A DNA stretch of 64,000 nucleotides, from the NCBI GenBank assembly GCA_040385465.1, contig JAZKHH010000009.1, positions 1,449 through 65,448 on the forward strand, in the 5' to 3' direction. Each line of letters starts with the position of its first letter. The first letter of the stretch is position 1. Source of the stretch: Pseudomonadota bacterium. GTDB taxonomy: Bacteria; Pseudomonadota; Gammaproteobacteria; Burkholderiales; Burkholderiaceae_C. The position numbers and the translations under genes were made by a program. Of this stretch, positions 6,389 through 11,252 are shown in pieces. The notes beneath the pieces are model-generated. The model was not told where the DNA came from. It saw nothing but the letters and a program-made list of their open reading frames with translations, and did not search any database.

Positions 6389-7927
6389 ATGTTCAAACTG
6401 CCCTCCGTTCACCTTTGCATCATGCAACCGGGTGGCTATGTGCATTCCCTGGGCTTTTTGGACCCGGCGCAGTACTTCCGGCACCAGTTCCGCCGCATGG
6501 GTGCGCAGGTCACCATGAGCAAGAACCGGCTGCGGCACGACGCGGTGAACTTCGTCTTCGGGGCCCACCTCGGCTTCGACGCGGCGCTGCGCGAGCGTTA
6601 CGACTGCATCTTCGTGAACCTGGAGCAGTTGGGCGAGGGCGGTGCGCAGGTCTCCGAGAGCTACCTGCGCCTGCTGGCCGGCTCGGCGGTGGTCGATTAC
6701 GACGCCCGCAACGTGCCCAGCTACAGCACCCAGGCGGCCGACGTGCCGGTGGTGCCGTTTTGGTTCGCCCCTTACTTGCGCCCGGAGATGGCCCTGCCGC
6801 TGGCGGACCGGCCCATCGACCTGCTGTTCATCGGCAGCATGAACGAGCGCCGCAAGGCCATGCTGGACCGAGTTCAGGCCCAGGGCGTGACGGTCAGCCA
6901 GTTCGACAGCCCGCTGTACGGGCCGGAGCGGGACCACTTCATCCTGCAGTCCAAGGCGGTGTTCAACACCCACTTCTATGCCACCAGCCGCTTCGAGCAG
7001 GCCCGTGTGTCGCATTGCCTGTCGCTGGGCACGCCGGTGATCTCCGAGCGCAGCGCCTTGACCGGGCCGGACGCGGCGTTCGAGAACAGCGTGCTCTGGG
7101 TGGAGGAAGCGGAGCTGGACACCTACTTCGCCCAGCGCTTCGGTCAGCCGGCGTTTTATGAGCAGGCGGCGCGCTGCCTGGACAACTTCACCCAGCACGA
7201 CCCGGTCGAGCCTTATGCCGACCTGCTGGCGTTTGCCGCCGGCTACAGCAAGACCCGCCGCGAACAGCGGGGTGCCGCGGCCTGGCAGCCCACCCAGATC
7301 AACCTCGGCTCGGGCAAGGATTACAAGCTCGGCTGGCTGAACCTGGACATCCTGGACCGCTCGCAGCCCGACGTGGTGCTGGACCTAGGGCGACCGGTGA
7401 GCTTTCCCGTGCGTTTCGACAGCCCGCTGGTCGGCCCGGTAGAACTGGCGCCTGGCTCGGTCTCCCTGGTCTATGCCAACAACGTGCTGGAGCATGTGCC
7501 CGATCTGCCGCAGCTGATGACGAATTGCCTGCAGCTGCTCAAAACCGGTGGGATCATGCACCTGGAAGTGCCCTATGAGCACGCCACCACCGCTTGGCAA
7601 GACCCGACGCACGTGCGCGCTCTGAACGAAAACTCCTGGCTCTACTACACCGACTGGTTTTGGTACCTGGGCTGGTTCGAACACCGGTTTTCCGCCCAAA
7701 ACTCCACCTACCTCGACGCTGCTTTGCAGCCCTGCGAGAAAAACCAGGCCGCTTTCATGCGCGTGGTGCTGGTGAAGGTGCAAACCACGCCGCAAGAACG
7801 CATGACCGCGCGGGTGATGCGCCCCGATTTCGCCCTGCCGGATGACAGCGGTTTGGTGCAAAGCCTGCGCCCGCAGCGCACCACCATCGCCCGGCTGGCC
7901 AGCGTCACTGCGGTTTCCCCGCTATGA
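6389..7927 (+). CDS. Fusion protein: glycosyltransferase-like N-domain plus class I SAM-dependent methyltransferase C-domain
   Basis: ATG 6389 lies behind a GAGGAG SD. The N-half IDLLFIGSMNERRKAMLDRV...SKAVFNTHFYATSRFEQARVSHCLSLGTPVISE resembles the C-terminal half of GT-B/CgeB-like transferases. The C-half INLGSGKDYKLGWLNLDI...VYANNVLEHVPD...LLKTGGIMHLEVP resembles a methyltransferase type 11 fold. Confidence 0.7.
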   Translation: MFKLPSVHLCIMQPGGYVHSLGFLDPAQYFRHQFRRMGAQVTMSKNRLRHDAVNFVFGAHLGFDAALRERYDCIFVNLEQLGEGGAQVSESYLRLLAGSAVVDYDARNVPSYSTQAADVPVVPFWFAPYLRPEMALPLADRPIDLLFIGSMNERRKAMLDRVQAQGVTVSQFDSPLYGPERDHFILQSKAVFNTHFYATSRFEQARVSHCLSLGTPVISERSALTGPDAAFENSVLWVEEAELDTYFAQRFGQPAFYEQAARCLDNFTQHDPVEPYADLLAFAAGYSKTRREQRGAAAWQPTQINLGSGKDYKLGWLNLDILDRSQPDVVLDLGRPVSFPVRFDSPLVGPVELAPGSVSLVYANNVLEHVPDLPQLMTNCLQLLKTGGIMHLEVPYEHATTAWQDPTHVRALNENSWLYYTDWFWYLGWFEHRFSAQNSTYLDAALQPCEKNQAAFMRVVLVKVQTTPQERMTARVMRPDFALPDDSGLVQSLRPQRTTIARLASVTAVSPL

Positions 7928-8139
7928 GGCCGGGGCGCCACGGTGCCCCGAGAACCATGTCACGTTTTGATACATCCGTACAAACCCGGTCGGAAGTTCC
8001 CTGACAGGGGGTATGGAAGAAACTGGACTCAAGCCACAGAGATGGGCTGATGTTGGCCGCCAATTGATCTGTTCACAATTCGTTTCACGCTGAGACGTTT
8101 TCATCAGCCCGATCAACGAATACAGACAAGGTGGAAGCC

Positions 8140-8463
8140 ATGAATGCCGATCAAGTCCTGACCGAAATCCGCGAAGCCAATCTTTCTTACCTGATGCTGG
8201 CCCAGAGCCTGATTCGCTCTGACCGCGAACAAGCTTTGTACCGTTTGGGCATCACCGAGGAGAGCGCTGCGATGATCGCACTGCTGACCCCGGCCCAGAT
8301 GATGAAAATTGCCGCCGGCAACACCTTGCTGTGCCGCTTCCGCATGGACGACGACCTGGTGTGGGGTCTGCTGACCAACCACGGCAAGGGCTCGGCCAAC
8401 GACACCACCAACCGCCTGCACGCCAGCATCCTGCTCGCCGGTCGCCACCAAGAAGCTGCCTGA
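8140..8463 (+). CDS. flhD: Flagellar master regulator subunit FlhD
   Basis: MNADQVLTEIREANLSYLMLAQSLIRSDREQALYRLGITEE...LTPAQMMKIAAGNTLLCRFRMDD aligns by eye with enteric FlhD. AAGGTGGA SD precedes ATG 8140. Confidence 0.9.
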   Translation: MNADQVLTEIREANLSYLMLAQSLIRSDREQALYRLGITEESAAMIALLTPAQMMKIAAGNTLLCRFRMDDDLVWGLLTNHGKGSANDTTNRLHASILLAGRHQEAA

Positions 8464-8519
8464 GCTTCGGCTCATTCCGCCTCGGTGTCACCCGGTTCAA
8501 CCCTCCTAGGAGCAGCATC

Positions 8520-9056
8520 ATGCGCAGCAAAAGTATCCTCACTGAAGCCAAGCAAATCGAGCGCGCCGTCACGCTGATCAACCTCGGCGCTCGATTGCAA
8601 GTGCTGGAGTCGGAAACCGACCTGTCGTATGAGCGCCTGTTGCGCCTGTACAAGGAGGTCTCGGGCAAGTCGCCCAGCAAGGGGCAGTTGCCGTTCTCGA
8701 CCGATTGGTTCATGACCTGGCAGCCGAACATCCATGCCAGCCTGTTCCTGAACATCCACGAGTACCTGAACAAGGTGGCCGAACTGGATGAGATCGACAC
8801 GGTGATCAAGGCCTACCAGCTGTATCAGGAGCAGACCACGGCCCAGAGCCTGGAAGCCCTGCTGTCCATCACCCGCGCCTGGCGCCTGGTGAAGTTCGTC
8901 GACAACGGCATGCTGACCCTGACGCAGTGCTCCAAGTGCGGCGGCAAGTTCGTGACCCACCCCCACGAGATCGCCAAGCACTATGTGTGCGGTCTGTGCA
9001 GCCCCCCGGCGCGCGCCGGCAAGGGCAAGTCGGTGGGCGGAATCCAGATGCACTGA
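8520..9056 (+). CDS. flhC: Flagellar master regulator subunit FlhC
   Basis: MRSKSILTEAKQIERAVTLINLGARLQVLESET...SPSKGQLPFSTDWFMTWQPNIHASLF... and the zinc site CSKCGGKFV...YVCGLC, immediately downstream of flhD. Confidence 0.92.
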   Translation: MRSKSILTEAKQIERAVTLINLGARLQVLESETDLSYERLLRLYKEVSGKSPSKGQLPFSTDWFMTWQPNIHASLFLNIHEYLNKVAELDEIDTVIKAYQLYQEQTTAQSLEALLSITRAWRLVKFVDNGMLTLTQCSKCGGKFVTHPHEIAKHYVCGLCSPPARAGKGKSVGGIQMH

Positions 9057-9130
9057 GCCCTCGGCGGGCATCGAACCTCCGGTTCACCAGACGGGCAGGG
9101 CGCTTCAATCGAGCATTCCTGCACGTCTTG

Positions 9131-9152
9131 CCAGCGGATGTGAAGCCGCTGG
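9131..9152 (+). terminator. Hairpin 75 nt after the flhC stop
   Basis: CCAGCGG-atgtgaag-CCGCTGG. Only a weak T-rich tail (cttaagttt). Confidence 0.35.
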
Positions 9153-9153
9153 C

Positions 9154-9181
9154 TTAAGTTTCCAGGTTGCGTTGCCGATCA
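9154..9181 (+). promoter_or_regulatory. Sigma-28 (FliA)-type promoter candidate P1
   Basis: TTAAGTTT-N12-GCCGATCA versus the enteric consensus TAAAGTTT-N11-GCCGATAA (7/8 and 7/8 matches, spacer +1). Confidence 0.55.
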
Positions 9182-9188
9182 CCTCGGT

Positions 9189-9267
9189 GACGCGAAAGCG
9201 TCTTCTTGCTTGTCTCCTCCCGGCACTTCGTGTGCCTTCAAAACGGGCCTTGTGCCCGTTCTTTTTT
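9189..9267 (+). ncRNA. Candidate small RNA or attenuating leader (hairpin, CU-rich single strand, hairpin, intrinsic terminator)
   Basis: GACGC-GAAA-GCGTC (9189-9202), unpaired TTCTTGCTTGTCTCCTCCC (9203-9221), GGCAC-TTCGT-GTGCC (9222-9236), then the terminator at 9242-9267. It begins ~8 nt after the P1 -10 box. Confidence 0.35.
9242..9267 (+). terminator. Rho-independent terminator
   Basis: AACGGGC-cttgt-GCCCGTT followed by cTTTTTT. Confidence 0.7.
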
Positions 9268-9364
9268 GGGCGACTGTTTTTCCTCGCCCCGAACCCGCAT
9301 TCCTTGTGCGCCATAAGCCAGGTGTTCACCCGGCAGTTGCTGCGACCGCAGCGCACATCCCTCC

Positions 9365-9391
9365 TCAAGCAAGCCCAAACGGTACCGATAT
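9365..9391 (+). promoter_or_regulatory. Second, weaker sigma-28-like box proximal to motA (P2)
   Basis: TCAA-N15-ACCGATAT, ~52 nt upstream of the motA ATG. Confidence 0.3.
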
Positions 9392-9443
9392 TCCCACCAA
9401 GACCGGCGCAACGTCGGTTCCTTTTGGCTTGGGATCGGAAACC

Positions 9444-10304
9444 ATGTTTGTCATCATCGGGTGGGGCGTCGTCATGGTGTGCGTGTTCGGGGTGTACATC
9501 GCCCACGGCGGCAACATCGGCGTGGTCCTGACGGCCTTGCCCTTCGAGATGGTCTCCATCGGCGGCGCCGCGGGTGGCGCGTTCCTGGTCAACAACCAGC
9601 CCAAACTGCTCAAGGCCACGATGAAGGGCCTGAAACAGTGCTTCAAGTCGTCGCACCACAACAAGGCACGCTACATGGAGTTGATGGCGCTGTTGTATGA
9701 CCTGCTGCAAAAGGCGCGCAAGGAAGGCCTGATGTCCATCGAGAAGGACGTCGAAGACCCCCACAACTCCGCCATCTTCCAAAAATACGCCACCGTCGGC
9801 AACGACCACCATGTGGTCGAGTTCATCACCGACTACCTGCGCATGATGGTCTCCGGCAACCTCAACGCCCATGAGATCGAAAGCCTCATGGACAGCGAGA
9901 TCGAGACCCACCACAACGAAGCCCACGGCCCGGTGGCGGCGATCGCCCGCCTGGCCGGGGCGCTGCCGGCCTTCGGCATCGTGGCGGCCGTGCTGGGCGT
10001 GGTCAACACCATGGGCTCGGTGGGCCAGCCCCCGGCGGTGCTGGGCGGCATGATCGGCTCGGCCCTGGTGGGCACCTTCCTCGGCATCTTGCTGGCCTAC
10101 GCGTTCGTCGAGCCTTTGTCGGGCCTGCTGGAGCAAAAGGTCGACGAAGGCAGCAAAGAGCTGCAATGCATCAAGACCACCTTGCTGGCCAGCATGCAAG
10201 GTTACGCCCCGCAGGTGGCGGTGGAATTCGGCCGCAAGGTGCTGTACTCGGGCGACCGTCCGACCTTTGCCGAGCTGGAAGCCCACGTCAAAGGCCGGAA
10301 GTAA
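9444..10304 (+). CDS. motA: Flagellar stator protein MotA
   Basis: MFVIIGWGVVMVCVFGVYIAHGGN...ALPAFGIVAAVLGVVNTMG...ALVGTFLGILLAYAFVEP, typical MotA TM3/TM4 and plug regions. Confidence 0.93.
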   Translation: MFVIIGWGVVMVCVFGVYIAHGGNIGVVLTALPFEMVSIGGAAGGAFLVNNQPKLLKATMKGLKQCFKSSHHNKARYMELMALLYDLLQKARKEGLMSIEKDVEDPHNSAIFQKYATVGNDHHVVEFITDYLRMMVSGNLNAHEIESLMDSEIETHHNEAHGPVAAIARLAGALPAFGIVAAVLGVVNTMGSVGQPPAVLGGMIGSALVGTFLGILLAYAFVEPLSGLLEQKVDEGSKELQCIKTTLLASMQGYAPQVAVEFGRKVLYSGDRPTFAELEAHVKGRK

Positions 10305-10313
10305 GGTCGCGCC

Positions 10314-11252
10314 ATGGCAGGTGACGCCAAAAAACTGCAACCGATCATCGTCAAGAAGATCAAGAAGGGCGGCCACGCCGTGCACGGTGGCGCCTGGAAG
10401 ATCGCCTATGCCGACTTCGTGACCGCCATGATGGCGTTTTTCCTGCTGATGTGGCTGCTGGGGTCGACCACCGAAGGCGACAAGAAGGGCATTGCCGACT
10501 TCTTCAATGCGCCGTTGAAAGTGGCGTTGCTCAACAGCGGCAGCGGCTCGGGCGACGCGTCCCATGTGCTCAAAGGCGGCGGAACCGACCTCACCCGCAG
10601 TGCGGGCCAGGTCAAACGGGGTGACATCGAAGCGCCGCGCGCCACCATGAACCTGCTGGCCCTCAAGGCCGAGCAGCACCGGGCGGAGAAGGCCAAGCTC
10701 GAGGCCTTGAAGCAGAAGGTGAGCGAAAAGATCGCCACCAACCCGAAACTCGCCGCGGTGAGCGGGCAGATTCGCCTCGACATGACCCGCGACGGGCTGC
10801 GCATCCAAATCGTCGACGAGAACAACCGGCCGATGTTCGACAGCGGCAGCGCAGTCGTCAAACCTTACATGCGTGACTTGCTGCGCGACATCGGTGCGGT
10901 GCTGGCCGAAGTGCCGAACCACCTGACGCTGGAAGGGCACACCGACGCTCAGCCGTTCAGCTCGGGCGACCGCGGCTACAGCAACTGGGAGCTCTCCAGT
11001 GACCGCTCGAACGCCTCACGCCGCGAGTTGCTGGCGGGTGGGCTGCCGGAAGACCGGGTCTTGCGGGTGCAAGGGCTGGCCAACAGCCTGCCCCTGCTGC
11101 CCAAAGAGCCGCAAAACCCAGCCAACCGCCGCATCAGCATCATCGTGATGAACCGAGAAGCGGAAGACCGGATTTTTCGCACATCAGTCGAGGGGACAGA
11201 AGGGGCCGCCGAGCCCAATCCCCCCTCAATTTCTCCGGGCCCCGCCCGATAA
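10314..11252 (+). CDS. motB: Flagellar stator protein MotB
   Basis: [26 protein letters not shown] (the conserved Asp-containing TM helix) and a C-terminal OmpA-like domain ([10 protein letters not shown]...[18 protein letters not shown]). Confidence 0.92.

Follow-up and report, generated by a model that had tools for sequence, protein, structure and literature searches.

A conserved RNA between flhC and motA in Burkholderiales, with the seed of the S17S family and a candidate sigma-28 promoter

Experiments in enterobacteria and in Campylobacter have demonstrated flagellar small RNAs (sRNAs) that depend on sigma-28 (FliA). In Escherichia coli K-12 the sigma-28 sRNA MotR (motR, b4828) has fliC and the rpsJ leader as targets (Melamed et al., 2023, eLife; PMC10578931). 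Another kind of sRNA is found in Rfam as RF02278, the Betaproteobacteria toxic small RNA, a family that includes bdhR1 of Burkholderia cenocepacia and its relatives as well as S17S of Bordetella pertussis (PMC11722255). S17S is cut by RNase E from a longer transcript, S17L, the product of a sigma-A promoter located between a glycosyltransferase gene and coq7; it is Hfq-dependent, represses a sigma-54 activator through single-stranded sites, acts with its Site 1 at the ribosome-binding sites of its targets, and its first 27 nucleotides (nt) are 100% conserved across Betaproteobacteria (PMC11722255). Here we describe an RNA unit at the flhC-motA junction of a Pseudomonadota bacterium of the Burkholderiales, in a stretch of 64,000 nt that we call the window (GenBank assembly GCA_040385465.1, contig JAZKHH010000009.1, positions 1,449 to 65,448 of the forward strand). 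The RNA is MotR-like in place and control and S17S/toxic-sRNA-like in seed and build. It represents a conserved, unannotated sRNA family with covariance support that is absent from Rfam 15, and we think it rather probable, judging from the sequence, that it is an independent, sigma-28-driven, trans-acting sRNA of the anti-Shine-Dalgarno type. The literature search returned no paper describing this RNA, and none mapping RNAs in the genera that carry it.

The clearest evidence for the RNA is its conservation over a diverged background. When the 387-nt spacer between flhC and motA (9057-9443) was used as a DNA query against 40 relatives, there were matches in two genomes of the same genus only, and solely to query positions 128-214 (window 9184-9270), with 91-92% identity. 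In this alignment the flanks have diverged while the unit is near-identical and shows a compensatory change in the terminator. Of 401 genomes sampled from the family, which represent 201 genera, 97 (66 genera) were matched by a covariance model (R1) made from the three sequences; FlhC was present in 277 of the same 401 genomes. In at least 60 genomes, compared by eye, the matches to the RNA and to FlhC shared contig and strand and were 0.1-2 kb apart. Within the window R1, run with its filters off, matched only the unit itself, i.e., there is no paralogue in this stretch. A scan of 185,579 species genomes for the exact core gave 92 stretches, and the named hosts were Aquabacterium, Piscinibacter, Rhizobacter, Rubrivivax, Aquincola, Ideonella, Pseudaquabacterium and Rhodoferax. 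The combined set contained 96 loci with 85 distinct RNAs, 31 of them found by the model and 65 collected by exact core match. Synteny was well kept: flhC lay upstream and motA downstream, both on the strand of the RNA, in 27 of the 31 best loci, and in the larger set the RNA stood between the two genes in 81 of 96 loci; by tblastn, 87 of these 96 have FlhC upstream on the strand of the RNA. We conclude that the unit at 9189-9267 is a real conserved RNA element and not a product of chance.

Outside the family, a search at the level of the order gave only weak matches (42 bits at most), and none of the 11 best that we inspected was near flhC or motA; several resembled other CU-rich sRNAs. Three loci from other Burkholderiales families (L133, L135 and L136, at about 1490-1590) have UCUCCUCC right after the stop codon of a protein ending in ...AYHM or ...AYTM, followed by a hairpin and a terminator, and look like a different CU-rich sRNA family of the 3'-untranslated-region (UTR) type. 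Further CU-rich sRNA-like units were seen at L126, L129 and L134. Some genomes hold two copies of the flhC-motA RNA (locus L108 and genome G050), and in G050 there are two flhC genes (contigs C22 and C37) with an RNA copy after each. An unrelated gene lies between the RNA and motA in at least 13 loci, where the RNA stays by flhC and the promoter P2 (see below) stays by motA. The inserted gene is usually a membrane-anchored methyltransferase dependent on S-adenosylmethionine (SAM); at L002 it is pilin-like. The recurring methyltransferase (about 270-360 amino acids, class I SAM, motifs VLDAGCGLGHGL and DLVYLFQRPESM) was found in one clade, at L019, L037, L060, L061, L063, L065, L077, L082, L086 and L093. 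A pilin-like gene with the N-terminus ...NALLYTLLALVLGGIGL... is located beside the RNA in two genomes of the same genus as the window (L002, 1654-2256; L007, 663-1196).

All the parts that the preliminary description of this DNA had listed from the letters alone, from the upstream promoter P1 through the two hairpins H1 and H2 and the tract between them to the terminator and the second promoter P2, were found where it had placed them, and a consensus scan recovered what it had called a textbook intrinsic terminator (Table 1). The 83-nt unit folds with a minimum free energy (MFE) of -28.3 kcal/mol (z = -4.2; 0 of 200 shuffles fold as well), with the hairpins as described and the pyrimidine tract single-stranded. 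The layout of the RNA, i.e., a variable 5' hairpin, the unpaired tract UUCUUGCUUGUCUCCUCC, a second hairpin, a UUCA linker and a terminator with its U tail, is supported by covariation, which was computed on A4, an alignment of 96 sequences that had been fitted to the model. On A4, 93.2% of the cells were paired against 71.7% in shuffles, both sides changed in 16 of 19 pairs, and the covariation score was 0.568, compared with 0.198 in shuffled alignments and 0.03-0.12 when partners were slid by 1-3 columns. For H1 all five pairs change on both sides across the 85 distinct sequences (83% of cells paired), the terminator does so in all eight model pairs (96.9% paired), and H2 in three of six (95.7% paired). 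H1 and the terminator are thus free in sequence with their pairing kept, while H2 keeps its stem sequence and has loops that vary among relatives and are not CU-rich. Amid these three covarying helices the seed tract stays invariant: the 18-nt stretch UUCUUGCUUGUCUCCUCC is almost unchanged and predicted to be unpaired, and in the window its UGUCUCCUCC portion (10 nt) is found at 9212-9221. A small open reading frame that starts at a TTG at 9210, in a frame running into motA, was considered and rejected; it has no Shine-Dalgarno sequence, and its spacing to motA varies among relatives.

Table 1. Features of the flhD-motA region of the window (coordinates of the whole stretch).
Feature	Position	Strand	Remarks
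flhD	8140-8463	+	Pfam FlhD confirmed
flhC	8520-9056	+	Pfam FlhC, 285 bits; gene upstream of the RNA
GC-rich hairpin GCCAGCGG-ATGTGAAG-CCGCTGGC, possible weak flhDC terminator	9130-9153	+	terminator-like match; abuts the P1 -35 box
P1, sigma-28 (FliA)-type promoter: TTAAGTTT (9154-9161)-N12-GCCGATCA (9174-9181)	9154-9181	+	14/16 to the family consensus
Predicted transcription start	9188-9189	+	7-8 nt past the P1 -10 box, by analogy with E. coli motR
5' hairpin H1, GACGC-GAAA-GCGTC	9189-9202	+	from the fold; sequence and length vary among relatives
CU-rich seed, pyrimidine tract TTCTTGCTTGTCTCCTCCC	9203-9221	+	single-stranded in both the MFE fold and the RNAalifold consensus
Hairpin H2, GGCAC-TTCGT-GTGCC	9222-9236	+	stem sequence conserved, loop free
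UUCAA linker	9237-9241	+	similar AUUCA linker in the RF02278 consensus
Intrinsic terminator AACGGGC-CTTGT-GCCCGTT (9242-9260) with tail CTTTTTT (9261-9267)	9242-9267	+	consensus terminator scan; stem of 7 bp, loop CTTGT
P2, second sigma-28-type promoter: TCAAGCAA-N11-ACCGATAT	9365-9391	+	11/16 in the window; motA ATG follows after 52 nt
Hairpin where the P2-motA leader is predicted to begin, then CCUUUUGG	9401-9419	+	8 bp, 3-nt loop; terminator-like match with only a 4-T tail
motA	9444-10304	+	Pfam MotA_N and MotA_ExbB; gene downstream of the RNA

The position of the promoters is the second line of evidence. We scanned with the family consensus TCAAGTTT-N10-12-GCCGATAA, at 12/16 matches or more and with CGA required. 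P1, which the preliminary description had taken for a FliA-type promoter, is the best sigma-28 match on either strand of the 64-kb window, and its position is conserved across genera: 63 of 96 loci have it at a distance of 15-100 nt before the core, in most cases 26-36 nt. The weaker second box before motA also proved real and conserved. In 66 of 96 loci P2 stands past the terminator and ahead of the motA ATG by 27-65 nt, and 47 loci have both promoters. The earlier reading of P2 was TCAA (9365-9368), N15 and ACCGATAT (9384-9391); P2 of the window aligns with that of L003, where there is also a hairpin at the place equivalent to 9401-9419. As a reference, 295 matches at 12/16 or more were counted in 8.74 Mb (both strands), so that about 0.003 are expected per 85-nt interval and about 0.3 among the 96 loci for either position; P1 is more than 200-fold enriched at its fixed distance. 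Other sigma-28-like matches in the flanks amounted to only 9 in 254 kb. P2 is absent at this threshold in 30 of 96 loci, among them an Aquabacterium-like group that still has a GCCGAAGA -10-like box before motA. A sigma-28-like box, weaker than P1, precedes flgM on the minus strand (29602-29576), and another, TCAATTTC-N11-CCCGATAA (13/16), lies at the very end of motB (11226-11252), 50 nt before the cheY ATG; the latter suggests that cheYZ has its own class III promoter, and together they fit the sigma-28 consensus for class III genes in this organism. The sigma factor itself is encoded in the genome, with fliA split over two contig ends (C62, 43638-44081, and C126, 6-272) that correspond to model positions 75-223 and 2-90, each piece alone being below the curated cut-off.

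The likeness to MotR is one of place and control. In both cases a short RNA, of 95 nt in E. coli and about 79 nt here, lies between flhC and motA, on their strand, and stops at an intrinsic terminator, and a sigma-28 promoter is found by the 3' end of flhC, TAAACTTT-N11-GCCGATAT in E. coli and TTAAGTTT-N12-GCCGATCA here. The annotated start of E. coli motR is 7 nt after the GCCGATAT -10 box, which by analogy would put the start at 9188/9189 and give an RNA of about 79 nt opening with H1. However, the two RNAs have no homology in sequence or structure: R2, a covariance model made from the flhC-motA RNA family, gave only 13.2 bits on the E. coli region, from the terminator alone, and the MotR fold has no unpaired CU tract or seed. 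The promoters also differ in that the one of E. coli is inside flhC and serves motA as well by read-through, while here P1 is past the stop codon of flhC and in most genomes a separate promoter, P2, precedes motA. CJnc170 of Campylobacter jejuni is comparable in being reported as a late-flagellar FliA-dependent sRNA that acts on flagellar gene expression (PMC11187230); it belongs to an unrelated lineage and locus.

The seed and build point elsewhere. No Rfam 15 family reached its threshold on the window region or on eight relatives, the best match being SorX with 19.5 bits (threshold 46.6), through a CCUCCC motif and the terminator. However, a search for sites complementary to the RNA had as its best non-self match (13 nt) the antisense strand of another sRNA gene in the same genome, which proved to be a true member of RF02278 (67.3 bits; contig C241, 19337-19397, minus strand; locus L137, 1501-1561). 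Its sequence, ...CCGCUUGUCUCCUCC-ACCUCCUCAAAAGGUGG-AUUCA-terminator with a 5' hairpin ahead, shares the 13 nt GCUUGUCUCCUCC with the flhC-motA RNA. Model R2 matched this locus over its full length with 40 bits (E = 2e-10), much of the score coming from the shared seed and from generic terminator features. In both RNAs the unpaired UGUCUCCUCC, which opens the RF02278 consensus and would correspond to Site 1 of B. pertussis S17S, precedes the first hairpin of the model, and the order is the same: 5' hairpin, unpaired seed, hairpin, UUCA linker and terminator with a U tail. They differ in that the flhC-motA RNA lacks the second CU-rich loop (Site 2), its middle hairpin being GGCACA...UGUGCY. It further has a conserved 5' extension of its own (UUCUUGC), its locus is a fixed flagellar one, and its promoter is of the sigma-28 type. 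We think that it is probably a diverged paralogue of the RF02278/S17S family put under flagellar control, convergence being the alternative.

Taken together, the data make a separate transcription unit, dependent on FliA, the most likely origin of the RNA, which probably also forms the 3' end of the flhDC mRNA. Sigma-28 polymerase would start at P1, 7-8 nt past the -10 box, and stop at the intrinsic terminator, and the product would be a trans-acting sRNA of about 79 nt (9189-9267) belonging to the late (class III) flagellar regulon. Its layout is the usual build of an Hfq-dependent sRNA, and Hfq is encoded in the genome. The tract would mimic an anti-Shine-Dalgarno sequence and most likely pair with ribosome-binding sites of the GGAGACAA(G) type, blocking translation. 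Conservation, covariation, promoter position and the shared seed thus support what the preliminary description had preferred, a FliA-dependent sRNA of about 80 nt with a single-stranded CU-rich anti-Shine-Dalgarno seed. There would be a second source. No conserved terminator is found between flhC and the RNA, so the flhDC mRNA probably ends at the terminator of the RNA, which would then also be the flhDC 3' UTR; the hairpin at 9130-9153 is confined to this genome and is not conserved at the same-genus loci L002 and L003. Release from the flhDC mRNA by processing may occur, above all where the flhC stop abuts the seed and no P1 is seen. The suggestion that the terminator simply ends flhDC was therefore half right: it probably does so, but the invariant tract and the second conserved hairpin speak against the "simply". 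For the latter to hold, i.e., for conservation to reflect termination and promoter signals only, with no function of the RNA, one would have to accept that an 18-nt unpaired tract and a second hairpin, which termination does not need, were kept while the terminator stem varied freely, and that the functional seed of an sRNA family already characterised recurs unchanged in the tract. The terminator does sit at the end of the flhDC unit, and we nevertheless regard this explanation as very improbable.

A different view is that the unit works in cis, P1 being the main motAB promoter and the unit a 5' leader whose terminator sets the flow into motA, with the short RNA as a by-product or secondary regulator. 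The RNA is on the strand of motA and directly upstream of it in most loci, and in E. coli the sigma-28 promoter inside flhC yields both MotR and read-through into motAB-cheAW (PMC10578931). P1 of the window (14/16) is also much stronger than P2 (11/16), and there are the 30 loci in which P2 was missed. The preliminary description had proposed such an attenuator with P2 as its bypass promoter, and of this proposal P2 stands: it is present in 66 of 96 loci, with the GCCGAAGA box even in the group that lacks it, and since it is real and conserved, two separate units are favored over a pure attenuator, with motA probably transcribed from P2. The terminator is strong (7-8 GC-rich pairs and 6-8 U), a methyltransferase or pilin-like gene parts the RNA from motA in at least 13 loci, and neither the MFE nor the consensus folds contain a conserved antiterminator pairing. 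Nor could there be one between the tract and the terminator, because the arms of the latter covary freely while the former is invariant. A leader attenuator of this kind is in our opinion unlikely. About equally doubtful, or slightly less so, is the opposite view, that the sRNA comes solely from the flhDC 3' UTR, cut from the class I mRNA as S17S is from S17L by RNase E (PMC11722255), and that the P1-like boxes are weak or non-functional. It would agree with the missing terminator after flhC, with the way in which the related S17S is made, and with ten loci (L015, L032, L035, L040, L047, L055, L078, L084, L087 and L088) where the flhC stop is 4-45 nt before the seed and there is no P1. However, the enrichment of P1 at a fixed distance in many genera is hard to reconcile with it, and the copy at L007, near neither flhC nor motA, yet keeps a P1-like box. 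The two copies at L108 bear on both views. The first (136-157) abuts the flhC stop and has no P1, as expected of a processed 3' UTR; the second (2517-2538), 2.4 kb downstream and before motA, has a good P1, which argues against processing as the only source, and the pair as a whole against an attenuator.

Regarding targets, GGAGACAA is complementary to UUGUCUCC and ranks among the three most frequent 8-mers with GGAG at candidate translation starts, where 19 of its 63 genomic copies are located (6.4-fold enrichment). Three pairs of neighboring genes (coxS/coxL-like, DUF1302/DUF1329 and SDR/dctP-type binding protein) have 9-12 nt complementary to the seed at their ribosome-binding sites, as do aceE, iorA, nirB and nuoK. 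The pairs with AGGAGACAA(G) sites in both genes are on contigs C191 (583, 1061), C14 (1326, 3005) and C77 (1529, 2320); as the genome has only 19 such start sites, three adjacent pairs exceed what independent placement would give. The candidate sites resemble the transport and metabolism bias reported for S17S, a likeness without statistical or comparative support. Among sigma-54 activators, the target class of S17S, a modest match (-22.3 kcal/mol) was found in one of 10 genes only. None of the flagellar genes of the window has its start region in the top 3% of duplex energies.

Several points weigh against an independent sigma-28-driven sRNA as we have described it, and the main uncertainty is in its biogenesis (P1, processing of the flhDC 3' UTR, or both) and in the identity of its targets. 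No single target is supported. The 11-nt complement at the start of nirB in this genome is not conserved in 27 relatives; no conserved pairing of the RNA was found with the flhD 5' region or the flhC and motA start regions (AGGAGACA is found at flhC in some lineages and not in the window); and the genome-wide duplex scans were dominated by G-rich sites laden with G-U pairs, i.e., noise. The sigma-28 dependence is deduced from motif matches only, about one third of the loci have no P1 at the chosen threshold, and in the subgroup where the flhC stop abuts the seed, processing from the flhDC mRNA may be the main route. The RF02278 model did not match the flhC-motA RNA at E values up to 10 (cmscan of 7500-10500, and of the whole genome, with six matches; the gathering threshold is 50 bits), and being blind to it leaves common descent with that family unproven. 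As to the conservation itself, the pair counts were made on an alignment that had been fitted to the model, and the collection of 65 of the 96 loci by exact core match inflates the apparent conservation of the core, which is best judged on the 31 sequences found by the model; among these too the seed stretch is near-invariant.

The rest of the neighborhood is that of a flagellar and chemotaxis locus, with motB (confirmed by Pfam), cheY and cheZ also on the plus strand of the window. Upstream of flhD (7988-8097) several blocks are kept across many genera, GTAGGAAGTTGCCTGACA, GGAAGAA..GGACTCAAGCCACAGA, CTGATGTT and TCTTCACAATTCGTTTCACGTTGAGAC, which by their look could be parts of the promoter, an operator or the 5' UTR of the master operon. 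The combination TCAAG-N14-CTGATGTT among them resembles a degenerate sigma-28 box.

As to what the RNA may mean for these bacteria, a possible but tentative scenario is that a copy of the S17S/toxic sRNA, an ancient betaproteobacterial regulator, was captured by the flagellar regulon and now has two sources, the class I flhDC transcript, whose 3' end it forms, and a class III sigma-28 promoter. The completion of the flagellum would thereby be tied to translational repression at GGAGACAA-type ribosome-binding sites, mostly in transport and carbon-metabolism operons (coxSL, DUF1302/DUF1329, SDR-dctP), and the RNA would be a functional counterpart of MotR that had arisen independently at the flhC-motA junction. 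If this is true, the principle of the sigma-28-dependent flagellar sRNA would extend to a large environmental group of Burkholderiales (Aquabacterium, Piscinibacter, Rhizobacter, Rubrivivax, Ideonella), and the same junction would have gained such an RNA twice, from unrelated sequences. For annotation, the family is a covariance-supported RNA new to Rfam 15. For physiology, it links the flagellar cascade to the S17S/toxic-sRNA seed, whose role is still being worked out, and the idea that results is that motile cells may turn down a defined group of mRNAs for transport and metabolism.

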